Virus record (IMG/VR): IMGVR_UViG_3300003323_000567
Coordinates: 62,035 to 126,034 of that record
Strand: one strand, 5' to 3'
DNA: 64,000 nt
From: a virus
The translations under genes were made by a program, and so were the position numbers. Of this stretch, positions 1,682-24,737 are shown piece by piece (position 1 is the first letter of the stretch; every line of letters begins with the position of its first letter). The notes beneath the pieces are model-generated. The model saw only the letters and a list, made by a program, of their open reading frames with translations, was not told the DNA's origin and made no database searches.

Positions 1682-2257
1682 TTAGGCTGATCTTCTATGA
1701 TCAGTAATAAGAATATCCCTAAGGGACATGAGAGATGATATAGTGCCAAAAGATAATGGGTAATAATCCCTTATATTAATCCCCACATCAATGCTCTTCC
1801 CCCAAGGGACTTTATCAAGGGTTCCATGAGAATGCCCATGTATGTTCCAAGACCCATGAGGGGAATTTGGCCATGCATACATTCTGCAGTGATTCAGAAT
1901 GATCTTTTGCCCATCTATAACAATGGTCAGCTGTTCTCCATGGTAGATACCACATCTATGATACAACCTTATAGTGTCTTCATGATCATGGTTACCTTTG
2001 ATGAAGTGCTTTATACCATTCATATCTCTGAGCATGAGCTCAGCCTCCTTTAGATCCCCAAGGGATAGATCTCCTAAAAACCAGAGGTGGTCGTTTGGTC
2101 TGACAATCTTATTGTGACATTCCACAATATATTTGTCGTGATCCTCAATGGTCTCAAATGGCCTGTTGTCATATTTGAGCACATTATTGTGACCCCAATG
2201 GTAATCAGAAGCAAAATAGTGCTCTACGGTCTTAGACCGAGTGAATTTTAGGCTCAT
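1682..2257 (-). CDS. calcineurin-like metallophosphoesterase
   Basis: Motifs SDYHWGH, LGD, GNHD, HGHSH. Confidence 0.9.
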   Translation of the reverse strand: MSLKFTRSKTVEHYFASDYHWGHNNVLKYDNRPFETIEDHDKYIVECHNKIVRPNDHLWFLGDLSLGDLKEAELMLRDMNGIKHFIKGNHDHEDTIRLYHRCGIYHGEQLTIVIDGQKIILNHCRMYAWPNSPHGSWNIHGHSHGTLDKVPWGKSIDVGINIRDYYPLSFGTISSLMSLRDILITDHRRSA

Positions 2258-2469
2258 TTTCTGTGTTTTAGCTTGATTTCATCACCTGTCTCGAGGAGCC
2301 AGTAAAAGATATAAGCCAAGGGTAAGCATTTTCCAAAATCAGGAATTAGGGAATGAGCAGCTGAATAAGCTATTGCAATATTCATTATCCAAGATATCCA
2401 GGAGACTAGAATTGTAAGTCTCTCAAGTGTTTTTTCTGTCATACTAGCTCCTTTTTTGTCTGGCTTCAT
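2254..2469 (-). CDS. small membrane protein
   Basis: Two hydrophobic stretches; overlaps neighbours in operon fashion. Confidence 0.5.
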   Translation of the reverse strand: MKPDKKGASMTEKTLERLTILVSWISWIMNIAIAYSAAHSLIPDFGKCLPLAYIFYWLLETGDEIKLKHRK

Positions 2470-2983
2470 CTCTTATTTTCATAAGAATTCTGCCAAGTTT
2501 GTTTAAGCCCGTACCATTGCATGTACCCCAATAGTCATCCCTCCACCAATTGGTCTCCTCCAAGTACTTATCTCCTGTCGAGAGGAGAAGATTTCTTAAA
2601 TAAGGATTGGAGAACTTGATGACATTAAGATCATACATTATCTTATCCCTTACCTGCAATATGAGCATCCCCTGGGAATCAGTGACCTGATCTTCCTGGG
2701 GCAACATGCTAATCCAATCAGCTCTAAGTGCAATTTGTCTACCTTTACTCTTAGCTTCACTAGGAGATAAGTCAACAAATGATTTTCTTGCTTCAGATCT
2801 GCTGGGATGTAATTTAGCTGCCTGGTAAGCATTTTCATTTGAGGGATACAGAATCCCTTCATATTCAATGGAATGCAAATGAAAATTGGATAAGAACCTA
2901 TGTTTGTCAAAAAACCCATAAACGTGGGTATCAGTGACTTTGTAAATTGCCTTTGCTTTGGTGGTTAATTCCATACTCCGCAT
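2444..2983 (-). CDS. NADAR (YbiA-like) family protein
   Basis: FLSNF, YPSNENAYQAAK, LLLSTGDKYLEE, DDYWG, GLNKLGRILMKIR motifs. Confidence 0.9.
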   Translation of the reverse strand: MRSMELTTKAKAIYKVTDTHVYGFFDKHRFLSNFHLHSIEYEGILYPSNENAYQAAKLHPSRSEARKSFVDLSPSEAKSKGRQIALRADWISMLPQEDQVTDSQGMLILQVRDKIMYDLNVIKFSNPYLRNLLLSTGDKYLEETNWWRDDYWGTCNGTGLNKLGRILMKIRDEARQKRS

Positions 2984-3076
2984 TTAAAAGGTAGAGAGCC
3001 AAGTACATGACCTGGCTCTAAACCAAGTTCTGCACATGAACTGACTCTTGAAGAAGAACACTGGGAGTCAATATCT

Positions 3077-3349
3077 TTAGGCCTCTAACAATGCTTCTAG
3101 CTTTACCTCTTCAGGCTTTTGGATCTCTTTGAAATGGTTTCCATTGAATAATAGACCAGGGAATTCCTCAAGCTCTATTCCTGGATGAGGTTTTCCACAA
3201 CCACTACAGATGTAATCCCGTGGGTTGTTTGACAGAGTATAAGGAGTATTGTGCAGTAACAGGGGATATCCATTTTCTGACATTACTCTTAGTTCCTCTG
3301 CGGCAGGGAAGAATTCTTCCCTTAGTTCAACGATACTTCCCTTTTCCAT
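3077..3349 (-). CDS. hypothetical protein, paralog family A
   Basis: MEKGSIVELRE...CSGC...LEEFPGLLFNGNHF...LEALL. Confidence 0.65.
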   Translation of the reverse strand: MEKGSIVELREEFFPAAEELRVMSENGYPLLLHNTPYTLSNNPRDYICSGCGKPHPGIELEEFPGLLFNGNHFKEIQKPEEVKLEALLEA

Positions 3350-3359
3350 ACAGATGATT

Positions 3360-3626
3360 TTAGGTTACCAGAATTTCATTTAGGTTGATTTGCATGGGTT
3401 CTTGCACTTCTACAAAGAAGGATGCATCAAATTCCCATTCGTCCAGCTCTTCTATCTGTATTGTAATAGCTCCTCTTTGTGTCATGTGACAACATGTCAA
3501 AGCGGGGCCCCTTTTTACAGTATAGATCTGTCCGAAATCTGGGAGGGGGATTCCGTACATGCTTCCCAATAGCATCCATTCTACCAGAAGAGGTTTGGCA
3601 AGCGTTATTAGACTGCCTTTCTGCAT
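3360..3626 (-). CDS. hypothetical protein, paralog family A
   Basis: MQKGSLITL...IEELDEWEFDASFFVEVQEP...LNEIL. Confidence 0.6.
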   Translation of the reverse strand: MQKGSLITLAKPLLVEWMLLGSMYGIPLPDFGQIYTVKRGPALTCCHMTQRGAITIQIEELDEWEFDASFFVEVQEPMQINLNEILVT

Positions 3627-3632
3627 GGGCTG

Positions 3633-4079
3633 TTAGTTTGAGGGTTCTTCAGCGTTGTTCTGTTGCGTATCCTCTGCCACAGCTTCCCCGAGGGTCTGAT
3701 AGTACTCACGTTCTATCTGATCCATTTGATGAATAATGGACAGAGCTGCATCAACCTTTTTAAGGAAATCCTTCTTTGCTTCGAGGATAACCTTCTTAAA
3801 CTCTCTTTCTTTGTCAGCTATTGTTTTATCGACCTTTCTTTTGTCTTCAACAAGAGCTACATAGGAGTTTTCGAACTGTAGAAAGAGCTCTTCTTTTTTC
3901 TTAGTGACAATCCTATTCATTAATTCGGGAAGGTCAACTTTTTCCAGTTTTTGAGATTTGGCCCAATTAGGATCACCTGTGAGGGCAGTCAGCTGCCTCA
4001 AAGATCGCTCATATCTAGCCTCGATCTTTTTGGCTTCTTTGCCTTGATCCTCAGTACTTTGAGATTTGTTTTCCTCCAT
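3633..4079 (-). CDS. coiled-coil hypothetical protein
   Basis: 148 aa charged helical ORF. Confidence 0.65.
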   Translation of the reverse strand: MEENKSQSTEDQGKEAKKIEARYERSLRQLTALTGDPNWAKSQKLEKVDLPELMNRIVTKKKEELFLQFENSYVALVEDKRKVDKTIADKEREFKKVILEAKKDFLKKVDAALSIIHQMDQIEREYYQTLGEAVAEDTQQNNAEEPSN

Positions 4080-4464
4080 GGTTCAAAGATTTTTTCAGCT
4101 CTAAAATCACTTTGCTCAACTCATAAGAAAACTTGTCCTGAAATTCCATAACATCTATTTCGAGCAAAGCTCCTTCCAGACCATCCAAAATCTGGTTTCT
4201 GAAGGTGGGAGTATAAGCTTGCCTCTCTTTAACGAAAGATAGACTTGCAATAAATCCCTTAGGGGTGAAAGACATAATAATGTGATCAGGCTTAATTGCT
4301 ACCCTGAGGTCTGTTGAGTCATATCCATCTCTAAGCCTGGTTATCAGCTTATTGTAGAATATACCTCTCAGCTCACTGGGAGCTATGGGTGCATTCACTT
4401 GTCTAACCACCCAATCACTGTAATCTATCAGGGCCCCGCTCAAAATAGTTGTGTGGTCAATCAT
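4051..4464 (-). CDS. hypothetical protein
   Basis: 137 aa ORF in gene run. Confidence 0.6.
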   Translation of the reverse strand: MIDHTTILSGALIDYSDWVVRQVNAPIAPSELRGIFYNKLITRLRDGYDSTDLRVAIKPDHIIMSFTPKGFIASLSFVKERQAYTPTFRNQILDGLEGALLEIDVMEFQDKFSYELSKVILELKKSLNHGGKQISKY

Positions 4465-4465
4465 T

Positions 4466-4681
4466 TTACATGTTTTTGAATGAGGTTACCCACGACGTTA
4501 CATAGCCATGGTACTTATGTAAGAAGTCAATTTTACCCCTCGATTTGATACCCACATCTCCTTTGGCCAATGACCCAAAGAGCATGTAGACAATCTTTCT
4601 GTCCCGAGGGATCAGGAGATCTGACTTCTGGTTCAGCTGGTTTACAACTGTTTCCTCCTGGTAGTTTCGCTTTTTTGCCAT
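4466..4681 (-). CDS. hypothetical protein
   Basis: 71 aa ORF abutting the next gene. Confidence 0.6.
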   Translation of the reverse strand: MAKKRNYQEETVVNQLNQKSDLLIPRDRKIVYMLFGSLAKGDVGIKSRGKIDFLHKYHGYVTSWVTSFKNM

Positions 4682-4827
4682 ATATCTTTAGCTCTAAACC
4701 TTAGCTTCAGAGCGTATCTTATCTCCCAGTATCTTTAACACCCTCTCATACCTCCATCTTTGCCAGTGCCAAGCGCAAAACATACCAGCACAGAAGGAGA
4801 GTCCTGAAAATAACCAGACAAGTGTTG

Positions 4828-5046
4828 TCATGATTGTTTGTTTTGGTCTTCTTTGACTTTTTCAATGTCAACCCACTTATTAGCAACAGCTATTCCAGTG
4901 AGTATTATGCCACCTACTATGCCCAATATAAGACCGAAGAAAAATCCACCCATAAGAAAAGTTTTTAATGTTAAGAAAAGATGTTCCCTGTCTGCCTTCC
5001 AGGGGCAGAGATAGTCCCAGTCAGCTATCACTGGGCGACTGTACAT
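4828..5046 (-). CDS. small membrane protein (true start probably internal, MGGFFF)
   Basis: Single long Gly-rich transmembrane segment. Confidence 0.5.
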   Translation of the reverse strand: MYSRPVIADWDYLCPWKADREHLFLTLKTFLMGGFFFGLILGIVGGIILTGIAVANKWVDIEKVKEDQNKQS

Positions 5047-5186
5047 TTGCTACCCTCCTTTCAGGAATGTCTCTGGAAAAGATATGAACTCCGTTGCAAG
5101 TGTGGATCTGCCTTCATTTCCCTCAGGGAGCAGGGAACAATAATGAGAGTAGTTAGCCCTCACTATTCCTAAACATGGAAGGATCT

Positions 5187-5837
5187 TTAATCATTTATAG
5201 CTGCCAGGAGCTTCTCAGTGATGGTTTCAGCACCCTCAAGCTTCTTGGTATCCACAATATCAAACTTGGCATTCATTTTAGGAACCAGTTCATCGTCCAA
5301 TTCCTGGAGGAATGCTGCTGCACTTGAGTCATTTCCTACCTGAAGGAAGGTAATGGCAATTTCTCCATCAGCATCTATGCTGTTGGCAGCCTTTACAAGA
5401 ACATTTTTGGTGGCCTTTCTGTCACTTGGCTCACCATCGGTTATAATAGCCAGAAGTACAGGTTTGGGATTTTTACCGGCAGCCTTGTCTGTCAAATATT
5501 TATCCACTACTTTGCTGATCATTTGATCTGTGGGTGTTCCACCATCGGGTTCATTTTCTGTGAAGATCTGATTGAGCAGTTCGTCAGTACCTGTGACGTT
5601 GTTGTACATCTTGACCATAGATCCTCCAAAGATACCTATGTCTATGCCATCAGTATCAATGGTGGCTGCCTTTCTGGCCAATGAGCCAGCTGCTTCTTTA
5701 GCAAAATCCCAGCGGGACTTTCCTCCTGTGGTGTCATCTTTAGTTCCCATTGAACCAGATCTGTCAATTGCTACTGTAATGTCATACTTTGCGAGGTCTG
5801 CCACTGTGGCTTGTGTTGTTTCCATGTTTTTGTTCAT
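5187..5837 (-). CDS. von Willebrand factor A (vWA) domain protein
   Basis: MIDAS DRSGS, GGTPT, IITDGEP, FLQVG, FLQELDD...FDIVDT. Confidence 0.9.
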   Translation of the reverse strand: MNKNMETTQATVADLAKYDITVAIDRSGSMGTKDDTTGGKSRWDFAKEAAGSLARKAATIDTDGIDIGIFGGSMVKMYNNVTGTDELLNQIFTENEPDGGTPTDQMISKVVDKYLTDKAAGKNPKPVLLAIITDGEPSDRKATKNVLVKAANSIDADGEIAITFLQVGNDSSAAAFLQELDDELVPKMNAKFDIVDTKKLEGAETITEKLLAAIND

Positions 5838-5857
5838 GTTTTATTGTTAATAATAGA

Positions 5858-6076
5858 CTATCCTTCCTTTTGATTCAGGGTTGCATCACTAACACCATCA
5901 CAGTTGTCCCCTTGGGCAGTGTGTGGGGCGAGGTGCCAAGTAGCAAGTATTCCAGCATAAATAGCTGGGTCCATTTTGCCACAAGAAAAGCCCCCTGGTC
6001 CTACTGTAAGGAATTTGCAGCATTGTGCTCCTTGGCCAATTTTACATATTTCTTGGAGCCAGTTTTCTATTTGCAT
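5858..6076 (-). CDS. small Cys-containing hypothetical protein
   Basis: CKIGQGAQCCKFL...FSCGK...GDNCDG. Confidence 0.6.
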   Translation of the reverse strand: MQIENWLQEICKIGQGAQCCKFLTVGPGGFSCGKMDPAIYAGILATWHLAPHTAQGDNCDGVSDATLNQKEG

Positions 6077-6077
6077 A

Positions 6078-6302
6078 TTATTTTAGGTTTGGTTCTTCTT
6101 CAGTTATTTCCCACTCAAGAGCTTCTTTCAGATCCTCTACGAATATTGGAAATATCAGACTTACTTCCCCCTCCTGAAAGTTCCCATTGGATAACCATAC
6201 ACCCTTGGGCCATTGAGATACCCAGTATCCAATTTGACCATCAGGGGTTTTGACTTTTATTCCTCCCAGATTGGTGCTAGGTGGCAATGCTTTTAGCTTC
6301 AT
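6078..6302 (-). CDS. hypothetical protein
   Basis: 74 aa ORF, Trp-rich. Confidence 0.6.
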   Translation of the reverse strand: MKLKALPPSTNLGGIKVKTPDGQIGYWVSQWPKGVWLSNGNFQEGEVSLIFPIFVEDLKEALEWEITEEEPNLK

Positions 6303-8743: not shown

Positions 8744-9631
8744 TTATTGGTTTTGTTCTTTCTTTTTTCTAACTGCATTGTTTCTTTTTGCGTACTGAAA
8801 CTTTATTCTCGCTTCAGCACTCTTTGGTTCTATATTCAACCTTTCCCTCCTCTCAAGAATTCTCTGTTTTGTCTCTTCCAGCATCTCCTCTGTTATCTGT
8901 TCCTTGGGAAGACCAGTTTTGCTACTGGCCACAAGTCTGAGGTAATTTGGAGACAATTTCTGAGATTGAGAGGCATATTTACCGTTTTTCTTTATGTCTT
9001 CTCTTCTTTTAAGAGTTTGTGCTCTTCTTTCTTCTATCATCTCTGGAGTAATATCTTCGTTCTTTATGCCTGAGAGCCTGAGTAATTGTCTTACATAACA
9101 ATCATCCAGATTATCTCTGTTCTTTCTTGTTGATCTTTTTGGGACTGCTCCTATCTTCTTAAGAGCTGCTAGTTTCTCAAGCCTTTCTCTTTCTGCTATT
9201 ATTTCGGCTCTTTTCTCATCAATCATCCATCGTTTAACATCCTTTGCTTTCATCTTCCCTCGGGCAGTGAGGAGCTTAATAATGTAGCTATCTTCGAGGT
9301 TTAATCTGGCCTTTTCAGCCTTGATTCTGGCATCTGCTCGTCTTTTACTAGCAAATACAGGATCCTCTCTTCTCTTCTGGGAGATCTTTTTGTTGGCTCT
9401 TTTTTGATAGACTCTCCTTTTGGACTTCTTGAAAGAAGGTCTATTTTTCTTAACACATTGCTTGCACATCTTGAGAGGTTTATGTTCACCATCTTTGTTT
9501 TTAACAAGATAGAACATATTGATGGGTAATACCCCATGTTTCTTGCACTTGGCATGTCTTAAGCCTGTTAGCTCAAATTTAATCCTGGCCTCTTCCTGGA
9601 CCTTTAGTAGCTTTTCTTCTGCTGTGGGCAT
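8744..9631 (-). CDS. highly basic repeat protein with putative Zn finger
   Basis: Likely start MPTAEEK at 9631; CKKH...CKQC; three repeats of D/N-x-Y-xxxL...I/V-T/K-x-E/W-M-I/L-x-E. Confidence 0.6.
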   Translation of the reverse strand: MPTAEEKLLKVQEEARIKFELTGLRHAKCKKHGVLPINMFYLVKNKDGEHKPLKMCKQCVKKNRPSFKKSKRRVYQKRANKKISQKRREDPVFASKRRADARIKAEKARLNLEDSYIIKLLTARGKMKAKDVKRWMIDEKRAEIIAERERLEKLAALKKIGAVPKRSTRKNRDNLDDCYVRQLLRLSGIKNEDITPEMIEERRAQTLKRREDIKKNGKYASQSQKLSPNYLRLVASSKTGLPKEQITEEMLEETKQRILERRERLNIEPKSAEARIKFQYAKRNNAVRKKKEQNQ

Positions 9632-20075: not shown

Positions 20076-20480
20076 ATGAGTAAATTCACAGATGACTTTT
20101 TTGCCTTTCCTATTAAGGTGTATGATGGCTTCTCTCTGAAGAAGGCCATGGATGAAGAGGATAAGGTAGGGACTGAAGCTCCTGTGCCAATTGACTGGGT
20201 AGCTGGATGGGTGAGGATACCTGTAAAGGATTTACCTAAGATGATGTGGCATGAGGGCTTTTCCAGGGAGAGAAGTGTAAAGGATGTGGCTGAGGAAGGC
20301 TTTGATCTGACTATTGTTATTACTGATAGTTATGGAGAGTTTGTGAGTACATGGCCAAGGAAGAAGTTCGAAGCTAAGCTGGATGACTTCATGGCTAAGT
20401 ATCAGACCAGGGCAAAGGACTATCTATCAAGCCCGAACCCCCATATTCTCGTTCAATCTATATCCCCTGAGGGACAATAG
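20076..20480 (+). CDS. hypothetical protein
   Basis: Start MSKFTDD chosen downstream of the promoter (ORF track 20004..20480). Confidence 0.65.
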   Translation: MSKFTDDFFAFPIKVYDGFSLKKAMDEEDKVGTEAPVPIDWVAGWVRIPVKDLPKMMWHEGFSRERSVKDVAEEGFDLTIVITDSYGEFVSTWPRKKFEAKLDDFMAKYQTRAKDYLSSPNPHILVQSISPEGQ

Positions 20481-20490
20481 AGAAAATAAA

Positions 20491-20522
20491 TTTGGAGAAT
20501 TGAAATCTTGGATCTATATTTG
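20491..20522 (+). promoter_or_regulatory. promoter of tRNA operon 1
   Basis: TTTG(20491)-20 nt-TATATTTG(20515). Confidence 0.85.
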
Positions 20523-20549
20523 CAGGATAAAATCTAAACAAAGAAGAAA

Positions 20550-20630
20550 ATGTACTATTCAATAGTGGATAATGGGATCATGAGAGGCGCAGAGAAATCT
20601 GCTCCAGGGGTCTCTTTGTCTACTATGTAA
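20550..20630 (+). CDS. attenuator leader peptide 1 (MYYSIVDNGIMRGAEKSAPGVSLSTM)
   Basis: 26 aa uORF between promoter and terminator; codons 5-16 match the tRNAs of operon 1. Confidence 0.8.
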   Translation: MYYSIVDNGIMRGAEKSAPGVSLSTM

Positions 20631-20652
20631 TTGATAAACAAGTAGTTAACCA

Positions 20653-20695
20653 AGATCCCTGGAGCACCAAAGAGCTCTGGGGATTTTTGCTTTAT
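20653..20695 (+). terminator. intrinsic terminator/attenuator 1
   Basis: atccctggagc-loop-gctctggggat plus T-tract; 5' arm also complementary to 20600-20613. Confidence 0.85.
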
Positions 20696-20766
20696 GCCCT
20701 CATAGCTTAATGGTAGAGCTCGAACCTTTTAAGTTTGAGATCCAAGTTCGATCCTTGGTGGGGGTA
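20696..20766 (+). tRNA. tRNA-Lys(TTT)
   Basis: Cloverleaf GCCCTCA/TGGGGGT; loop CTTTTAA. Confidence 0.85.
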
Positions 20767-20775
20767 CAGAAATAT

Positions 20776-20846
20776 TCCCTTGTAGCTCTAAGGTAGAGTA
20801 GATGACTCTTAATCATCGGGCGAAGGTTCGATTCCTTCCAGGGGAA
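20776..20846 (+). tRNA. tRNA-Lys(CTT)
   Basis: TCCCTTG/CAGGGGA; GATGA-CTCTTAA-TCATC. Confidence 0.9.
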
Positions 20847-20847
20847 C

Positions 20848-21024
20848 ATGGCAACTAAAGATAAGAAAATCAGGAAGCTGAAGGACAGGATAGAGAAGAT
20901 GGAAGCAGATATGTATAAAGAGTTGAGACAAAAGACATCTTCAACTGCAGAGATCAGCGTACATAAGTATCAAGCCAGATTGGCTCAAATGCATCTGGAG
21001 CTTCGGGAACTCGAAAAGAAATAG
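20848..21024 (+). CDS. 58 aa coiled-coil protein inside tRNA operon 1
   Basis: MATKDKKIRKLKDRIEKMEADMYKELRQKTSSTAEISVHKYQARLAQMHLELRELEKK (manual translation). Confidence 0.6.
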   Translation: MATKDKKIRKLKDRIEKMEADMYKELRQKTSSTAEISVHKYQARLAQMHLELRELEKK

Positions 21025-21025
21025 T

Positions 21026-21232
21026 ATGAAGATTACGTTTCAAGAGATGGCTCTAAGGGGTAAAGAGATCTTGTCTAGGCAGGGGCCTGTTACATTAGAG
21101 CAGGCTAGGGAGCAAGTAGAAAGACTTAAGAAGAATTCAAAATGCTCCATAGCACAGGGGTTGAGTGCATCTGCCTTACAAGCAGTCGACCTTGGTTCGA
21201 GTCCAAGTGGAGCAACCCAAAAGGAGTTATAG
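21026..21232 (+). CDS. small protein whose frame runs through tRNA-Val
   Basis: ATG directly after the previous stop; first ~39 codons look like protein, the rest overlap the tRNA. Confidence 0.4.
   Translation: MKITFQEMALRGKEILSRQGPVTLEQAREQVERLKKNSKCSIAQGLSASALQAVDLGSSPSGATQKEL
21143..21215 (+). tRNA. tRNA-Val(TAC)
   Basis: TGCTCCA/TGGAGCA; loop CTTACAA. Confidence 0.85.
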
Positions 21233-21294
21233 CTCAATGAATAGAGCCTCTGCCTTCTAAGCAGATTATCAAGGTTTGATTCCTTGTAACTCCT
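21223..21294 (+). tRNA. tRNA-Arg(TCT)
   Basis: GGAGTTA/TAACTCC; TCTGC-CTTCTAA-GCAGA. Confidence 0.9.
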
Positions 21295-21384
21295 CAGGTC
21301 TGTTTCCAGCTTCAGCGTGGAGTACAAAAGTTGGGGTTTTCAACTGCAGTGTATTACTTTCCATAAAGTGATCTCCTGCAGCCA

Positions 21385-21456
21385 GGACAGTTAGCTCAGA
21401 GGAAGAGCAAAGAGCTGTTAACTCTTAGGCCGGGATTTCGAAATTCCCACTGTCCT
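21385..21456 (+). tRNA. tRNA-Asn(GTT)
   Basis: GGACAGT/ACTGTCC; AAGAG-CTGTTAA-CTCTT. Confidence 0.9.
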
Positions 21457-21457
21457 C

Positions 21458-21745
21458 ATGAAAGAATATCTGTTGAGTATAGGTTTTGAACAGAAGTTAC
21501 CTTGGCAGTTTCACACTGATTCTTACATGGTAACTGAACTTGAAGAAGATTCCAACTCCATACCCCTCTGGAGCATCACAAATAAGAGGTATGATGAAAA
21601 AGTTTTCAGAGGAAGAATAAGGAGTGTTGAAGAGTTTAAGCAGATCTTTATGCTTGTGAAAGAGGATTATGACTTGACACAGGATGAAATAAGTTGGGCA
21701 ACAGCTATAAGAGGTAATGAAGAATTAAATAAGATTGCGGGGTAG
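21458..21745 (+). CDS. hypothetical protein inside tRNA operon 1
   Basis: 95 aa ORF filling the gap between tRNA-Asn and tRNA-Met. Confidence 0.65.
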   Translation: MKEYLLSIGFEQKLPWQFHTDSYMVTELEEDSNSIPLWSITNKRYDEKVFRGRIRSVEEFKQIFMLVKEDYDLTQDEISWATAIRGNEELNKIAG

Positions 21746-21809
21746 ACTGGAGAGGTGCCAGCTCAGTCTCATAAGCTGAATGACATGGGTTCGATTCCCA
21801 TCCCCGCAA
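21736..21809 (+). tRNA. tRNA-Met(CAT)
   Basis: TGCGGGG/CCCCGCA; TCAGT-CTCATAA-GCTGA. Confidence 0.8.
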
Positions 21810-21877
21810 CTAATCAGGTCTCCCACCCTGGTCCAGAGGGAGAGCAATGGGGCACTTGGGGACTGCCTACCTGATAT

Positions 21878-21948
21878 GCATCACAAGCATTGTGACGATG
21901 CTCCATCCTTCCAAGTTGGAGAGCAGGGTTTGATTCCCTGGTGGTGCT
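21878..21948 (+). tRNA. tRNA-Gly(TCC)
   Basis: GCATCAC/GTGGTGC; loop CTTCCAA; U73. Confidence 0.8.
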
Positions 21949-21949
21949 C

Positions 21950-22177
21950 ATGGATAAGAATGAAGTAAAGAAGAGATTATATAAGGAAAACCCAGGTGCA
22001 ATCTTACTGGAGGTAAGAGCAGATGGTATGTTATACCAAGCTCTCTTTAAAGGGGATGATGGGTTACCTGATATAAACCAAAAAGTAAAATTCCTTGTTC
22101 CCTTAGGGGAAATAGGAGAAGTAGTATGGAATAGGATAATGGATGCTAAATTATTAATAAGATGGTTACAAGATTAA
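21950..22177 (+). CDS. hypothetical protein inside tRNA operon 1
   Basis: MDKNEVKKRLYKENP...FLVPLGEIGE...MDAKLLIRWL. Confidence 0.65.
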   Translation: MDKNEVKKRLYKENPGAILLEVRADGMLYQALFKGDDGLPDINQKVKFLVPLGEIGEVVWNRIMDAKLLIRWLQD

Positions 22178-22195
22178 AAGAAGGTGAGGAGCTAT

Positions 22196-22268
22196 GCTCC
22201 CATCGTCTAATCGGTTAGGACGTTACTCTTTCAAGGTAAAAACGAGGGATCATAACCCTCTGGGAGTA
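22196..22268 (+). tRNA. tRNA-Glu(TTC)
   Basis: GCTCCCA/TGGGAGT; loop CTTTCAA; atypical T loop ATCATAA. Confidence 0.8.
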
Positions 22269-22366
22269 CAACATATTTAAGCTACATTGCGGACAAATGC
22301 TCTTAACTGAGCTGAGACCTGATAGGTTTCATACAGCAATTTGTCTGTCCGCCATGTGGCTAGTTC

Positions 22367-22436
22367 GAGGGTGTGGTGTAATGGTTGCATAACATCTTGT
22401 CACGGTGCAGGTTGGGGTTCGAGCCCCCCACTCTCG
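22367..22436 (+). tRNA. tRNA-Asp(GTC)
   Basis: GAGGGTG/CACTCTC; loop TTGTCAC; G73. Confidence 0.85.
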
Positions 22437-22444
22437 ACTTAAAT

Positions 22445-22520
22445 CGGCTCATAGTTTAAGAGGTCAAAACTCCCGACTCATAATCGGATGTTCCCAGATC
22501 ATGGCTGGGTGAGCCAACCA
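22445..22520 (+). tRNA. tRNA(CAT), probably Ile2 (lysidine type)
   Basis: CGGCTCA/TGAGCCA plus ACCA; anticodon arm CGA-CTCATAA-TCG as I recall for bacterial Ile2; ATA codon present in leader 1. The C1:A72 mismatch means an initiator identity cannot be excluded. Confidence 0.65.
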
Positions 22521-22602
22521 ATCTTGAGGGTGCATGTCCCTCAGGGACAACTAGAGGATAAAGTGGGGGAGGGTAAGAACCCCCTCTCCCCCTTTATCAA
22601 AT

Positions 22603-22674
22603 TGCCTGGTAACTCAGTGGTAGAGTGCCTCTCTGATACGGAGTGAGTGGATAGTTCGATTCTATCTCAGGCAA
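22603..22674 (+). tRNA. tRNA-Ile(GAT)
   Basis: TGCCTGG/TCAGGCA; loop CTGATAC. Confidence 0.85.
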
Positions 22675-22738
22675 CAGTAGGGACAGCTAAGTAACTGGAA
22701 GGGATGAAAGTTAGCCTTCGGGTTCTGTCCAAACACCA

Positions 22739-22812
22739 GGGGTTACATGTACCAAGGTTGGCGAGGGATCCTTGCAAGATCTCTGAGAAGAGTTCGATTC
22801 TCTTTAGCTCCA
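22739..22812 (+). tRNA. tRNA-Ala(TGC)
   Basis: GGGGTTA/TAGCTCC with G3:U70; loop CTTGCAA. Confidence 0.85.
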
Positions 22813-22820
22813 CAGATTTA

Positions 22821-22852
22821 TTTGGAAATCTCAAAAAGACTTCCTACATTTG
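22821..22852 (+). promoter_or_regulatory. promoter of tRNA operon 2
   Basis: TTTG(22821)-20 nt-TACATTTG(22845). Confidence 0.85.
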
Positions 22853-22859
22853 CAACATC

Positions 22860-22928
22860 ATGACAAAAGTATTATCATATTCCAGTCTATATCTCTTGAT
22901 CAAAGATCGAGCTGGGATGGTTATATAG
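22860..22928 (+). CDS. attenuator leader peptide 2 (MTKVLSYSSLYLLIKDRAGMVI)
   Basis: 22 aa uORF; codons 5-13 encode only Leu/Ser/Tyr, the amino acids of operon 2. Confidence 0.8.
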   Translation: MTKVLSYSSLYLLIKDRAGMVI

Positions 22929-22950
22929 TTTTTTTTGAAACCGTGGAGGT

Positions 22951-22986
22951 GCCCCAGCTTTTCTAGGCTGGGGTTTTTTGTTTTTA
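22951..22986 (+). terminator. intrinsic terminator/attenuator 2
   Basis: gccccagctt-ttct-aggctggggt plus T-tract; 5' arm complementary to 22909-22916. Confidence 0.85.
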
Positions 22987-22987
22987 T

Positions 22988-23060
22988 ACCTTGGTAGCCC
23001 AACGGAAGAGGCAGTAGTCTTAGGAACTACACAGTGTGGGTTCGAATCCCACCCTCGGTA
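22988..23060 (+). tRNA. tRNA-Leu(TAG), short variable arm
   Basis: GTAGT-CTTAGGA-ACTAC; T arm GTGGG-TTCGAAT-CCCAC; two acceptor mismatches. Confidence 0.75.
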
Positions 23061-23145
23061 CATGTTTATAATTTGTTTTGGAGAGTGTATGTGGCTAGTA
23101 GAGTTCAATGGACTGACTACTAATTGGTTATGCAGATTGGTATAA

Positions 23146-23220
23146 GTCCCTGTGATGTAATTAGGTAACCATACCAGACTTAAAATCTGGGTTTTGTAGG
23201 TTCAAGTCCTACCAGGGATA
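23146..23220 (+). tRNA. tRNA-Leu(TAA), short variable arm
   Basis: GTCCCTG/CAGGGAT; CCAGA-CTTAAAA-TCTGG. Confidence 0.85.
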
Positions 23221-23225
23221 CATAA

Positions 23226-23311
23226 GGAAGGTAGCACGGGATGCTCTGTAACTAGTCTTGAAAACTAGGCCAACGTGAAGAGCGTTGATGGTTGGACTCC
23301 ATTACCTTCCT
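23226..23311 (+). tRNA. tRNA-Ser(TGA)
   Basis: GGAAGGT/ACCTTCC; CTAGT-CTTGAAA-ACTAG; long variable arm CAACG/CGTTG. Confidence 0.8.
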
Positions 23312-23318
23312 CATATAA

Positions 23319-23402
23319 GGAGAGCAAACCTAAGAAGCCTTAGGAGCAGACTGCTAATCTGACTGTCCCTTAGGGGATGTGGATCGAGACCACTACTCTC
23401 CT
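23319..23402 (+). tRNA. tRNA-Ser(GCT)
   Basis: GGAGAG/CTCTCC; CAGA-CTGCTAA-TCTG; long variable arm. Confidence 0.8.
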
Positions 23403-23407
23403 CATAT

Positions 23408-23478
23408 TGAGTGGATGCCAGGGCAGCAGGCAATGTCTGTAAAACATAGGCACTAGGGTTCGAGTCCCTACCACTCAA
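23408..23478 (+). tRNA. tRNA-Tyr(GTA), short variable arm
   Basis: TGAGTGG/CCACTCA; ATGT-CTGTAAA-ACAT. Confidence 0.8.
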
Positions 23479-23484
23479 CTTTTA

Positions 23485-23516
23485 TTTGGTAGTCTCAAAT
23501 AACTACCATATATTTG
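23485..23516 (+). promoter_or_regulatory. promoter of tRNA operon 3
   Basis: TTTG(23485)-20 nt-TATATTTG(23509). Confidence 0.85.
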
Positions 23517-23520
23517 CATC

Positions 23521-23601
23521 ATGAATAAAGTATTTCGTCATACGTGGTTTACCTGTCAGCCTACTCAACCAGTGGGAAGGGGTGATGTCATGTATGATTA
23601 G
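23521..23601 (+). CDS. attenuator leader peptide 3 (MNKVFRHTWFTCQPTQPVGRGDVMYD)
   Basis: 26 aa uORF; codons 5-17 encode only F,R,H,T,W,C,Q,P, the amino acids of operon 3. Confidence 0.8.
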   Translation: MNKVFRHTWFTCQPTQPVGRGDVMYD

Positions 23602-23622
23602 AATATAAAGTTCTTGCATGCC

Positions 23623-23660
23623 AACCCCCTTTCTAACCAGATTGGGGGTTTTTCTTTTTA
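23623..23660 (+). terminator. intrinsic terminator/attenuator 3
   Basis: aaccccc...gggggtt plus T-tract; 5' arm complementary to 23573-23582. Confidence 0.8.
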
Positions 23661-23661
23661 T

Positions 23662-23733
23662 CTAGTTGTAGCCTAGAGGCCAGGCACTTGCTTTGGGAGC
23701 AAGATGACGCTAGTTCGATCCTAGCCAGCTAGA
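23662..23733 (+). tRNA. tRNA-Pro(TGG)
   Basis: CTAGTTG/CAGCTAG; CTTGC-TTTGGGA-GCAAG. Confidence 0.9.
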
Positions 23734-23738
23734 CATAC

Positions 23739-23812
23739 TCCAGATATGCTTTGATGGTGAAGCGCCTGTCTTGTAAACAGGAATAGAGAGTGTTCGAGTC
23801 ACTCATCTGGAT
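23739..23812 (+). tRNA. tRNA-Thr(TGT)
   Basis: TCCAGAT/ATCTGGA; CCTGT-CTTGTAA-ACAGG. Confidence 0.85.
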
Positions 23813-23817
23813 CATTT

Positions 23818-23890
23818 GGTGCTCAAGCAATTGTGGTCAATGCACCTGTCTGAAGAGCAGGCAAACTCAGTTCGATCCTGAGGGGTACCA
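23818..23890 (+). tRNA. tRNA-Phe(GAA)
   Basis: GGTGCTC/GGGTACC; CCTGT-CTGAAGA-GCAGG. Confidence 0.85.
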
Positions 23891-23897
23891 CTTATAA

Positions 23898-23969
23898 TGC
23901 CCTTTAGCACAATGGTAGTGCGTGAGTCTTTGGTCCTCATTATGTAAGGTTCGATTCCTACAGGGGCAT
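23898..23969 (+). tRNA. tRNA-Gln(TTG)
   Basis: TGCCCTT/AGGGGCA; loop CTTTGGT. Confidence 0.8.
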
Positions 23970-23971
23970 CT

Positions 23972-24044
23972 GTGGAGATACCAATTCGGTGAATGGGCTT
24001 GGCTGTGAACCAGGTAAGGCAGTTCGACTCTGCACTCCACCCCA
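23972..24044 (+). tRNA. tRNA-His(GTG)
   Basis: GTGGAG/CTCCAC, C73, CCA; CTTGG-CTGTGAA-CCAGG. Confidence 0.8.
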
Positions 24045-24115
24045 CTACCCTTCGTTCAAAGGAAGGACTTGAAGCTACGAACTTCAGGATATAGGTTCGA
24101 ATCCTATAGGGTAGT
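24045..24115 (+). tRNA. tRNA-Arg(ACG)
   Basis: CTACCCT/AGGGTAG; TGAAG-CTACGAA-CTTCA. Confidence 0.9.
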
Positions 24116-24118
24116 CAT

Positions 24119-24189
24119 ACATCTCTCAGGCCATGGGGGCCAAACAGTCTCCAAAACTGCAGGATAAGGTTCGATTCCTTAGAGGGGTG
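24119..24189 (+). tRNA. tRNA-Trp(CCA)
   Basis: CAGT-CTCCAAA-ACTG; T arm TAAGG-TTCGATT-CCTTA; 5' end uncertain by 2 nt. Confidence 0.8.
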
Positions 24190-24196
24190 CCGATAA

Positions 24197-24270
24197 GGCC
24201 AATTCGCCAAGTGGCAAGGCCGAGGCTTGCAAACCCTCTATCACCTGTTCGATTCAGGTATTGGCCTCCA
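24197..24270 (+). tRNA. tRNA-Cys(GCA)
   Basis: GGCCAAT/ATTGGCC, U73, CCA; loop TTGCAAA. Confidence 0.9.
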
Positions 24271-24305
24271 GGATCCTCTCTAATGAGAGGATTTTTGCTT
24301 TTTAT
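24271..24305 (+). terminator. terminator closing the tRNA array
   Basis: atcctctc-taat-gagaggat plus T-tract. Confidence 0.8.
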
Positions 24306-24377
24306 GGCATTAAGTCCCAGATACTTACATATTACTTCAAAAAAGGTCGTTAACTTTGTAAAAGAAAACCAAGCTAC

Positions 24378-24737
24378 ATGAAGGTAATTGTGCAGAAAAT
24401 ACGGAGAGAGGTAGCTTCTGACGTGGAAAAGGCAATAAGGTATTATTCTGTACTCCTTGCTCTGAATCAAGTTAAGCTTCCACAGAAGCAGCTATATCTA
24501 TTGGCATTCACTGCAGCCCGAGGGAGTATAACATCTCCTGCTGCAAGAAAGGAATTTGTAGAGATGTTTGATAGTTCCCTGGCATCTTTGGAGAACATGA
24601 AGCAAGAACTTGTTAAGTCTGGTTTTCTGGTCCAAACTGACATGAAGTATAGAGTTAATCCAAGCATTGCTCTGGATTTCTCAAAGGATATACAATTACA
24701 GATAAACCTAAAGGGAAGTGAAAAAGACCCAAGATAG
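24378..24737 (+). CDS. putative winged-HTH DNA-binding protein
   Basis: SLASLENMKQELVKSGFLVQ...YRVNP. Confidence 0.55.
   Translation: MKVIVQKIRREVASDVEKAIRYYSVLLALNQVKLPQKQLYLLAFTAARGSITSPAARKEFVEMFDSSLASLENMKQELVKSGFLVQTDMKYRVNPSIALDFSKDIQLQINLKGSEKDPR

Follow-up and report, generated by a model that had tools for sequence, protein, structure and literature searches.

A likely codon-matched leader-peptide attenuator in front of the first tRNA block of a crAss-like phage

The stretch of phage DNA analysed here, 64,000 nucleotides long (the window), comes from a crAss-like phage and contains a 205-nt region (20491-20695) with a Bacteroidota-type promoter, a 26-codon open reading frame (ORF) and an intrinsic terminator. 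This region is followed by the first of three blocks of tRNA genes, and the other two blocks are preceded by cassettes of the same layout. The features on which the analysis rests are the following:

20491-20522, + strand: promoter, identified by pattern match, with -33 TTTG, 20 nt and -7 TAnnTTTG (Bacteroidota type)
20550-20630, + strand: leader ORF, 26 codons plus TAA
20562-20597, + strand: sensor run, codons 5-16 of the leader, reading Ile(ATA), Val, Asp, Asn, Gly, Ile, Met, Arg(AGA), Gly, Ala, Glu, Lys
20562-20626, + strand: proposed anti-antiterminator hairpin, made up of 20562-72 paired to 20616-26, 20574-79 paired to 20609-14, and an inner helix of 20589-93 with 20598-602
20600-20613, + strand: 5' strand of the antiterminator, inside the ORF (codons 17-22), pairing with 20653-20666
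20652-20692, + strand: intrinsic terminator, stem of 20652-20665 with 20674-20687 (14 pairs), then a T run
20696-22813, + strand: block 1, 12 tRNA genes with small ORFs between them
22821-22987, + strand: sister cassette 2, with promoter, 22-codon leader from 22860 and terminator at 22951-22974, before tRNA genes for Leu, Leu, Ser, Ser and Tyr
23485-23661, + strand: sister cassette 3, with promoter, 26-codon leader from 23521 and terminator at about 23623-23650

The promoter, whose -7 consensus is quoted in PMC4747536, is presumably read by the host RNA polymerase. A -7 box accompanied by a -33 TTTG occurs only four times between 19900 and 24500, each time preceding a gene or a leader, and in eight relatives the promoter columns TTTGG and TA..(T)TTG are invariant or nearly so. 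Pattern and terminator scans detected no promoter motif and no + strand terminator inside block 1. The terminator ends 8 nt before the first gene of the block, tRNA-Lys(UUU), which starts at 20696. The whole 205-nt region folds with a z of -3.41.

The relatives used for comparison came in part from a 15-mer scan of viral_contigs, which returned 34 loci. We dropped 31 of them as chance matches without the cassette and kept L027 and L047; L032 proved to be a known relative cut at its edge. Searched against GenBank phages, the DNA of the region matched only unrelated tRNAs, and the protein of the upstream gene (20076-20480), searched alone, found no relative in viral_contigs or GenBank phages. 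The upstream gene has 54 homologues; some 20 long contigs from Logan, ENA or NCBI carry such homologues, and they are left out of the clade comparison. A homologous leader ORF of 24-36 codons was present in 8/8 clade members. Its start codon keeps a fixed place across the clade, and in the first 20 codons the alignment has gaps of 3 or 6 nt only, that is, in frame. The core of the leader peptide is similar among the relatives, and its C-terminal half is free to vary as long as the pairing is preserved.

Block 1 encodes tRNAs for Lys(UUU), Lys(CUU), Val, Arg(UCU), Asn, Met, Gly, Glu, Asp, a CAU tRNA read as Ile2, Ile(GAU) and Ala(UGC). The block thus has 12 tRNA genes and not 11: tRNA-Ala(UGC), at 22739-22813, is overlooked by ARAGORN with default settings but recovered when the threshold is lowered, and it can be aligned with tRNA-Ala genes that were called in relatives. 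With this gene in the block, the GCA codon of the leader is also cognate. The leader codons 5-16 read exactly as they had been listed in the initial annotation, which had described them as roughly one per block-1 tRNA with AAG as the sole missing cognate. Counted against the complete block, 12/12 sensor codons are cognate under loose wobble and 11/12 under strict wobble, and 11 of the 12 tRNAs are matched; Lys(CUU) alone has no cognate codon in the run, so the statement about AAG holds. No codon of the run is cognate to blocks 2 or 3. The 126-kb genome has 136,727 windows of 12 codons without a stop, and of these the sensor run alone reaches its score; the window lengths in this test were taken from the observed runs. 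Each sensor codon occurs only once or twice, and sensitivity to any single tRNA may for that reason be low. Of the six clade leaders tabulated together with their tRNA blocks, only two have an internal Met codon in the sensor, while the L027 leader has an ATG just before its sensor run and one Leu codon inside it.

The antiterminator had been proposed as a 14-bp helix with a single G-U between 20600-20613 and 20653-20666, and we find precisely this helix, uninterrupted. It takes up the 5' arm of the terminator, which both structures have in common. When the leader was shuffled 5000 times with its dinucleotides preserved, the longest helix had 13 bp and 14 bp was never reached. In eight related phage contigs 93.2% of cells are paired and compensatory changes on both sides are seen at 8/14 pairs (14 cells), a level that 0/500 shuffles reach on four of five measures and that slid controls, at 57.8% or less, do not approach. 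Each of the 8/8 clade members has its own complement of 9-14 bp between leader and terminator. The terminator itself has 93.6% of cells paired in eight sequences, with double changes at 4/14 pairs. The competing structure that had been described, 20562-72 with 20616-26 enclosing an inner 5-bp hairpin with a GAAA loop, is also predicted here: both elements are in the minimum-free-energy fold. Its conservation is more modest: 78.7% of cells are paired in six sequences (slid controls, 48% at most), its covariation is weak, being reached by 28-30/500 shuffles, and the inner hairpin is lost in L014 and L016.

We modelled the switch by equilibrium folding with a ribosome mask, the A site being moved along the leader codons. 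The terminator has a modelled probability of 0.96 without a ribosome, of at most 0.04 while the A site is at codons 5-14, and of 0.94 from codon 15 on, so that the stall-responsive window (codons 5-14) coincides in the model with the sensor run. A similarly broad modelled window was obtained for 7/8 clade members; in L003 it is narrow (codons 10-11). The same equilibrium model gave no switch for the second leaders of the window phage, L019 and L016, for the three leaders of Leptolyngbya phage Lbo-JY46 or for the two of Cellulophaga phage phi4:1, and for leaders without a modelled switch we do not claim an antiterminator.

The two sister cassettes repeat the arrangement with other codons. In cassette 2, 9/9 sensor codons are cognate and 5/5 tRNAs matched, and the run is unique among 157,097 codon windows (loose wobble); its putative antiterminator has only 8 bp, which 32/1000 shuffles reach. 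Cassette 3 precedes tRNA genes for Pro, Thr, Phe, Gln, His, Arg, Trp and Cys. Here 13/13 codons are cognate, 8/8 tRNAs are matched and the run is unique among 130,808 codon windows, with a 10-bp complement (reached by 0/1000 shuffles) and a modelled switch at codons 9-14. When the three leaders are crossed with the three blocks, the cognate codons number 12/0/0, 0/9/0 and 0/0/13. As peptides the three leaders are unrelated; the cassette layout is what they have in common.

The distant phages Lbo-JY46 and phi4:1 partition their tRNAs differently, and their leaders follow the partition. Block 1 of Lbo-JY46 includes the tRNA-Cys gene, and leader 1 contains six Cys codons (two of them in the sensor run) while leader 3 contains none. 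In phi4:1, leader A has 11/11 cognate codons and 7/7 matched tRNAs, and leader B 17/17 and 10/11. The sensor runs of both phages are each unique in their locus. On the other hand, the complement between leader and terminator is only 6-7 bp in these two phages, a length that 185-712/1000 shuffles reach. Leader 2 of Lbo-JY46 keeps Tyr and AGT codons, and no tRNA-Tyr or tRNA-Ser(GCU) was found in that record. Lbo-JY46 also gives matches to Thr_leader below threshold, scoring 25.0 and 23.4 bits where 55 would be required. The term purine-start codons, under which the sensor had been introduced, describes the block of the present clade well but is not required by the mechanism, given that phi4:1 sorts its tRNAs differently.

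These observations support the proposal that the leader is a codon-matched attenuator, and every prediction of it that could be tested at the level of sequence was borne out, though covariation is only weak for the anti-antiterminator hairpin; translation, stalling and regulated termination remain inferences. We consider it likely that 20491-20695 is a multivalent leader-peptide (ribosome-mediated) attenuator through which this crAss-like phage of a Bacteroidota host exerts feedback control on its first tRNA operon. In the absence of RNA data, we can say that block-1 tRNAs are probably made only when ribosomes read the matching codons slowly. What the analysis shows is the anatomy, the codon match, the covariation of the helices, a conserved ORF and promoter, and a switch that is feasible on thermodynamic grounds. 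Leader translation, stalling, the coupling of transcription and translation, and how strongly and in which direction the block would respond are inferred, there being no expression, ribosome or termination data, and coupling in the host is assumed.

According to the proposed mechanism, host RNA polymerase would initiate at the -33/-7 promoter (20491-20522) and a ribosome would start the 26-codon leader at 20550. If decoding were fast, the ribosome would run over the antiterminator strand (codons 17-22) and the terminator (20652-20687) would form. It would likewise form if no ribosome were present, because the 20562-20626 hairpin would then sequester the antiterminator strand. Either way, transcription would stop about 5 nt before tRNA-Lys. 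Slow decoding at any of codons 5-14 (or up to 16), each read by a different block-1 tRNA, would instead leave a stalled ribosome covering the 5' strand of the hairpin, whereupon 20600-20613 could pair with 20653-20666. The terminator would then be blocked and the polymerase would read into the 12 tRNA genes. More tRNA would mean faster decoding of the leader, and the loop would be closed.

The closest known relatives of such a device are the enterobacterial thr leader, with its Thr and Ile codons, and the ilvGMEDA and ilvBN leaders, with Ile, Leu and Val codons. As in these, a short promoter-proximal ORF holds the regulatory codons, a terminator precedes the structural genes, antiterminator and terminator helices (and, as proposed for the phage, an anti-antiterminator) are mutually exclusive, and several codons could each open the switch. 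Four features that define this class are present: a short ORF lies directly 3' of a promoter and 5' of the controlled genes, both being conserved in 8/8 relatives; the regulatory codons correspond to the controlled genes (12/12 cognate; 11/12 tRNAs); an antiterminator helix has a strand in common with the terminator; and the ORF is separated from the first structural gene by an intrinsic terminator. A further feature, an anti-antiterminator pairing over the regulatory codons that only a stalled ribosome would relieve, rests on the minimum-free-energy fold and on a mask model that behaves as expected, with weak covariation. The phage cassette differs from thr and ilv in that the element is viral, controls tRNA genes and not biosynthetic enzymes, and uses a run of about one codon per tRNA species (11/12) in place of repeats for one to three amino acids. 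The feedback would be direct, unlike that of thr and ilv, since the cassette yields the very kind of molecule that it senses. Furthermore, the antiterminator strand lies inside the phage ORF, with the stop codon after it. The four-segment logic of such attenuators has been described for pheL (PMC3082878).

Control over a component of the decoding machinery, and not over amino-acid synthesis, also occurs at pheST, the operon of phenylalanyl-tRNA synthetase, whose leader attenuator (pheM) has a run of Phe codons. There, however, one amino acid is sensed and a protein gene controlled, whereas the phage cassette has many codons and controls tRNA genes. Attenuator-like leaders may also precede tRNA-Phe genes of E. 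coli, but a literature search on this point listed only papers on genomic islands and we base no claim on it. In T-box riboswitches, too, the status of tRNA sets the choice between terminator and antiterminator, with codon-like specifiers, but T-boxes, whose architecture is conserved, recognise uncharged tRNA by direct binding that involves no ribosome. The T-box model (specifier loop, T-box sequence) had no match in the window, and none of the Rfam leader families (Thr_leader, His_leader, Trp_leader and others) was found there at gathering score or at E up to 0.5. The long tRNA array of Anabaena sp. PCC 7120 is similar in being supernumerary, horizontally moving, silent by default and induced by impairment of translation (PMC8421152); that text contains 0 mentions of a leader peptide, attenuator or terminator and describes no codon-matched ORFs. 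Large phage tRNA sets that replace or supplement those of the host have been discussed as codon compensation or as a counter-defence against tRNA-cleaving systems (PMC10264068, PMC11464382, PMC11555353). As far as these three sources were available, they concern what the tRNAs do and apparently not how their genes are regulated.

The region might also answer any slowing of ribosomes, whether by starvation, inhibitors or host shut-off, as a general switch on translation status in which the codon match is a by-product of ancestry or codon usage. Any stall within the modelled window would indeed open the terminator whatever its cause, the codons are present only once or twice each, and the Anabaena tRNA array is induced by a general impairment of translation (PMC8421152). 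Nevertheless, we regard this explanation as unlikely, because the codon sets of the three leaders are disjoint, each matching its own block only, and because the match tracks tRNA genes that have moved between blocks in Lbo-JY46 and phi4:1, which a non-specific sensor does not predict.

Less room still is left for readings without codon sensing by a ribosome. The terminator might merely serve the upstream gene (20076-20480) without any regulation, the small ORF beside it being unrelated or a product of chance; the lack of any other terminator for that gene and the commonness of short ORFs would fit this. Such a reading is most improbable in view of the conserved promoter between gene and ORF, the uniqueness of the sensor run in the genome, the covarying antiterminator, and the recurrence of the cassette three times in the window and again in distant phages. 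It could also be imagined that the RNA switches without any ribosome, the antiterminator being stabilised by tRNAs that attach to the codon-like run themselves, as in a T-box; the one codon per tRNA and the existence of the antiterminator/terminator alternative would fit such a switch. Yet no T-box or other Rfam cis-regulatory family appears at threshold, the run lies inside a conserved ORF with a fixed start codon and in-frame indels, and we know of no precedent for twelve different tRNAs binding one short stretch; we hold this switch to be scarcely credible. Equally hard to sustain is a functional 26-residue micropeptide behind a terminator that is leaky by default: the peptide core is similar across the clade, but the three leaders share the cassette layout without being related as peptides and the C-terminal halves vary wherever pairing is kept; the RNA helices and the codon match explain leader conservation. 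The chance ORF, the plain upstream-gene terminator, the T-box-like switch and the micropeptide were each rejected on the evidence given against them.

What phages gain from carrying tRNA genes is a matter of decades of debate, in which the regulation of these genes has hardly been raised. Our literature searches, which did not cover supplements, found no published account of such codon-matched leaders for phage tRNA genes. If the attenuator reading is correct, the phage gauges the speed of decoding at the codons of its own tRNAs and makes these on demand, a demand-driven supply that bears on the codon-compensation and counter-defence hypotheses alike. The known reach of leader-peptide attenuation would then take in RNA genes, viruses and Bacteroidota, with a new sensor design in which about one codon per tRNA species acts as an OR gate. 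Whether large phage tRNA arrays are generally controlled by a layer of codon-indexed attenuators that has so far gone unpublished, switching on exactly the block that is short, seems to us an evenly balanced question. Under that broader reading, one ORF per block would serve as a table of contents with which the adequacy of charged tRNA is checked codon by codon. The shortage could arise from degradation of host tRNAs by the phage or from anticodon-nuclease defences, and the cassette could then be a counter-defence sensor and actuator. As the cassette is present in the cultured phages phi4:1 and Lbo-JY46, these ideas are testable at the bench.

If the attenuator reading holds, the leader is also of use in annotation, since it predicts which tRNA genes lie behind it, and here it pointed to tRNA-Ala and tRNA-Ser(GCU), both overlooked by default tools. 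It further bears on the CAU tRNA at 22445-22520, for which the ATA codon had been taken as independent support of a lysidine-modified Ile2. That support stands only as indirect evidence, and the lysidine modification itself is inferred. An alignment of this tRNA with those of the relatives is suggestive only: the D-arm resembles that of the L016 tRNA-Ile(UAU), and the T arm of the window copy is odd. ATA heads the sensor run in 8/8 clade leaders, three ATA codons are present in the Lbo-JY46 leader, and one relative has a tRNA-Ile(UAU) at the array position occupied in the window by the CAU tRNA.

The window, which is the second half of the 126,034-base IMG/VR record, codes for a major capsid protein of crassvirus type (Pfam Crass_capsid, E 1.4e-35), a portal like that of P22 and a large terminase, and from the types of these three proteins we therefore assign the genome to a crAss-like phage. 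Genes lie on the minus strand up to ~19,250 and on the plus strand from 20,004 onward; the divergent intergenic region 19260-20004, where gene strand and GC skew both switch sign, may be a phage origin or regulatory hub. Just past the first plus-strand gene (20076-20480, here the upstream gene) and immediately 5' of a tRNA array lies cassette 1, the foremost of three units of one kind (promoter, short leader ORF and terminator), each of which stands in front of one of three tRNA blocks.

Features of the three cassettes and the tRNA array
20491-20522, plus strand: cassette 1 promoter, fits TTTG, 20 nt, TAnnTTTG
20550-20630, plus strand: leader 1 ORF, 26 codons plus TAA
20652-20687, plus strand: cassette 1 terminator from the terminator scan, 14-pair stem followed by a T run
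20696 (start), plus strand: tRNA-Lys(UUU), first gene of block 1
22860 (ORF start) and 22951-22974 (terminator), plus strand: cassette 2, with promoter, short ORF and terminator
23521 (ORF start) and ~23623-23650 (terminator), plus strand: cassette 3, with promoter, short ORF and terminator
24270-24295: final terminator of the array

PMC4747536 quotes TAnnTTTG as the -7 consensus of Bacteroides promoters. A -7 box accompanied by a -33 TTTG occurs only four times in 19900-24500, 5' of the upstream gene and of each of the three short ORFs. Motif search and terminator scan found neither a promoter motif nor a plus-strand terminator inside block 1, which is therefore a single unit ending at the cassette 2 terminator. 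The -7 box lies 8 nt upstream of the start of leader 2, 5 nt upstream of that of leader 3 and 6 nt upstream of that of leader A of Cellulophaga phage phi4:1, so that these three mRNAs are probably leaderless or close to it; ahead of leader 1 there is an A-rich 5' UTR of ~20 nt.

The initial annotation had described cassette 1 as an attenuator with a 12-codon sensor, an antiterminator, a competing hairpin and a terminator, and this observation was confirmed in every part. Codons 5-16 were recovered as listed when the ORF was read again; complementarity between 20600-20613 and 20653-20666 extends without a break over 14 pairs, including one G-U; and the minimum-free-energy fold contains both the competing hairpin (20562-20626), with its inner 5-bp hairpin closed by a GAAA loop, and the 14-pair terminator stem with its T run. 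The fold of 20491-20695 has a z-score of -3.41, and in 5000 dinucleotide-preserving shuffles of the leader the longest complement was 13 bp, one short of the 14 bp observed.

ARAGORN with default settings called 23 tRNAs in the window. Two further genes, both predicted from the leader codons, were missed by default ARAGORN and by Rfam at gathering score: tRNA-Ala(UGC) at 22739-22813, which ARAGORN calls at a lowered threshold and which aligns with tRNA-Ala genes called in relatives, and a tRNA-Ser(GCU)-like gene at ~23318-23403, aligning with tRNA-Ser(GCU) genes called in the related loci L003 and L019. The array therefore comprises 25 tRNAs in blocks of 12, 5 and 8. As read here, the acceptor stem of tRNA-Ala(UGC) has a G3-U70 pair. 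The second CAU tRNA (22445-22520) has a T arm that is unusual against its counterparts in L003, L019 and the Leptolyngbya phage Lbo-JY46; in the related locus L016 the same array position is occupied by tRNA-Ile(UAU), which would fit the reading of the CAU gene as Ile2. Small ORFs lie among the block 1 tRNA genes (20848-21024, 21026-21232, 21458-21745 and 21941-22177) and would be co-regulated with them; L003 lacks part of this inter-tRNA material, and there Lys, Lys, Val and Arg are closely packed. Outside the array, Rfam gives a 108-nt tRNA match of 34.3 bits on the minus strand at 10011-10118 that ARAGORN does not call.

We then compared leader codons with block tRNAs, assigning codons by wobble rules and scanning all six frames of the 126-kb genome. 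Under loose wobble, which lets U34 decode each of the four codons in a family box, codons 5-16 of leader 1 are cognate to block 1 in 12 of 12 cases and match 11 of its 12 tRNAs; under strict wobble 11 of 12 codons are cognate. Both leader 1 values are reached by a single one of 136,727 stop-free 12-codon windows genome-wide. Codons 5-13 of leader 2 (9/9 cognate, 5/5 tRNAs) are likewise alone among 157,097 windows, with 11 windows reaching these values under strict wobble, as are codons 5-17 of leader 3 (13/13 cognate, 8/8 tRNAs) among 130,808. When only the 23 default tRNAs are used, 3, 12 and 1 windows qualify for leaders 1, 2 and 3. Because the scan lengths were set to those of the observed runs, these figures look better than they should. 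Against blocks 1, 2 and 3, the sensor codons score 12/0/0 for leader 1, 0/9/0 for leader 2 and 0/0/13 for leader 3. Three runs unique in the genome, each within ~100 nt 5' of its own block, cannot reasonably be due to chance. The sensor codons of the window never sample Lys(CUU) specifically. An internal Met codon occurs in the sensor run of only two of the six tabulated clade leaders, and the related locus L027 has a Leu codon within the run and an ATG just 5' of it. The leader/block table is incomplete for L011 (block 1), L019 (block 2) and L016 (blocks 2 and 3), where the locus ends within the block or a tRNA is uncalled.

Relatives were collected from IMG/VR and metagenome loci with the terminase and an alignment of upstream-gene homologues (54 clusters) as queries, and two more by a 15-mer scan. 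After merging identical copies (L003 = L010 = L012; L014 = L013; L016 = L015 = L017), eight distinct versions of cassette 1 remained: the window, L003, L011, L019, L014, L016, L047 and L027. Each version has the promoter motif (L027 with a variant -7 box), an ATG at the matching place and an ORF that is 24-36 codons long, followed by a terminator and tRNA-Lys(UUU); alignment gaps in the first 20 leader codons are of 3 or 6 nt. In the eight-sequence alignment pairing holds in 93.2% of 103 antiterminator cells, and both sides have changed at 8 of 14 pairs (14 cells); no shuffle out of 500 reached the observed value on four of five measures, and slid controls gave at most 57.8%. With six sequences the values are 92.4% and 6 of 14 pairs. 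The terminator is paired in 93.6% of cells over eight sequences, with double changes at 4 of 14 pairs. The anti-antiterminator hairpin has less support: six sequences give 78.7% pairing, and 28-30 of 500 shuffles reach the observed covariation. For the individual sequences, the longest stretch of the leader that is complementary to the 5' arm of the terminator measures 14, 13, 14, 12, 12, 11, 9 and 12 bp, always in codons 17-24, and is reached by 0, 2, 0, 8, 1, 1, 26 and 0 shuffles per 1000. In L016 (7620-7640 and 9735-9750), leaders 2 and 3 have no promoter of their own and each overlaps the stop codon of the preceding ORF (174 aa and 32 aa), an arrangement that suggests translational coupling from that ORF into the leader.

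The RNA 3' of a ribosome was folded, in an equilibrium model, with the A site at each codon in turn. As the edge of the ribosome footprint, the first free base was placed 13 nt 3' of the first base of the A-site codon; 10 and 16 nt were also tried. The modelled terminator probability in the window is 0.96 without a ribosome, 0.95 with the ribosome at codons 1-2, at most 0.04 at codons 5-14 and 0.94 from codon 15, and moving the footprint edge by 3 nt moves the responsive stretch by one codon. This stretch is broad in seven of the eight clade members, while in L003 it covers only codons 10-11. In the model, then, stall-responsive codons coincide with the sensor run, indicating that the switch is feasible, without demonstrating that it operates. 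The same model gave no switch for leader 2 of the window, of L019 or of L016, or for the leaders of Lbo-JY46 and phi4:1.

We propose that host RNA polymerase would initiate a few nt past the -7 box and that a ribosome would then translate the leader. With fast decoding, the ribosome would move over the antiterminator strand and the terminator would form; without translation, hairpin 20562-20626 would hold that strand and the terminator would form as well. Slow decoding at any sensor codon would free 20600-20613 to pair with 20653-20666, allowing polymerase to go on and transcribe block 1 with its 12 tRNA genes, whose products would speed leader decoding and so close a negative feedback loop; the tRNAs of the block would act as the inputs of an OR gate. 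The anatomy, codon match, covariation, conserved ORF and promoter, and thermodynamic feasibility are shown by the sequence and folding analyses. They support the original interpretation of a codon-matched leader-peptide attenuator, and we think it likely that cassette 1 does attenuate the tRNA block, its response in vivo being inferred.

Such a device would work in the way known from the thr and ilv operons, which have multivalent leader-peptide attenuators, but it differs from these in four respects: it is directed at tRNA genes, it has roughly one sensor codon for each tRNA species, the antiterminator strand is contained in the ORF, and the element belongs to a virus. Except for the weakly supported anti-antiterminator, the features that define the class at the sequence level are met; the four-segment scheme of such attenuators is described for pheL in PMC3082878. 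A T-box identity was rejected, as the Rfam search of the window gave no T-box match, and in that search cassette 1 belonged to none of the leader families. In a search that left out most subscription journals and supplements, we found no paper describing attenuation by leader peptides upstream of tRNA genes or of tRNA arrays in phages. The nearest paper concerns a tRNA array of Anabaena that translational stress induces (PMC8421152), and a word search of its text gave no occurrence of attenuat-, leader peptide or terminator.

Distant phages partition their tRNAs differently from the window, and their leaders follow the partition, which we regard as the strongest argument that the codon match has been selected. 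Lbo-JY46 (PP438436.1), the nearest GenBank phage by terminase (35% identity), has three cassettes matching the layout of the window, with a promoter motif of matching kind. Its tRNA-Cys(GCA) is in block 1 and absent from block 3; of the six Cys codons in leader 1, two fall inside a 17-codon run (17/17 cognate, 11/12 tRNAs), and leader 3 (11/11 cognate, 7/7 tRNAs) has no Cys codon. The window and L003 have their Cys gene in block 3 and their Cys codon in leader 3. Both Lbo-JY46 runs are unique in that locus. Leader 2 of this phage retains Tyr and AGT codons; no Tyr or Ser(GCU) tRNA was found in the whole record, where Leu(UAA) is the sole tRNA outside the array. The recorded host is cyanobacterial, yet the cassettes (1780-6250) carry the Bacteroidota-typical TTTG / TAnnTTTG motif and the phages nearest to it are crAss-like; either its assigned host or the polymerase reading these promoters merits closer attention.

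Phage phi4:1 (NC_021788.1), whose terminase is 26% identical, has a 23-gene tRNA array on the other strand, with two cassettes, each after a repeated promoter motif. Leader A has an 11-codon run (11/11 cognate) matching all seven tRNAs of block A (Pro, Glu, Gln, His, Leu, Leu, Arg). Block B comprises Ala, Lys, Ile, Gly, Met, Asp, Thr, Val, Arg, Met and Tyr, and leader B has a 17-codon run (17/17 cognate, 10/11 tRNAs), provided that one CAU tRNA reads ATA. Each run is unique in the 30-kb locus. Leader and terminator arm are complementary over only 6-7 bp in both Lbo-JY46 and phi4:1, a length not above that of shuffles. The phi4:1 leader 5' of tRNA-Pro carries no annotation. Leader B falls within annotated gp075 (39 aa, TTG start; 9271-9390, minus strand), of which the codon-matched leader is the later part, and the annotated start of gp075 lies inside the repeated promoter motif.
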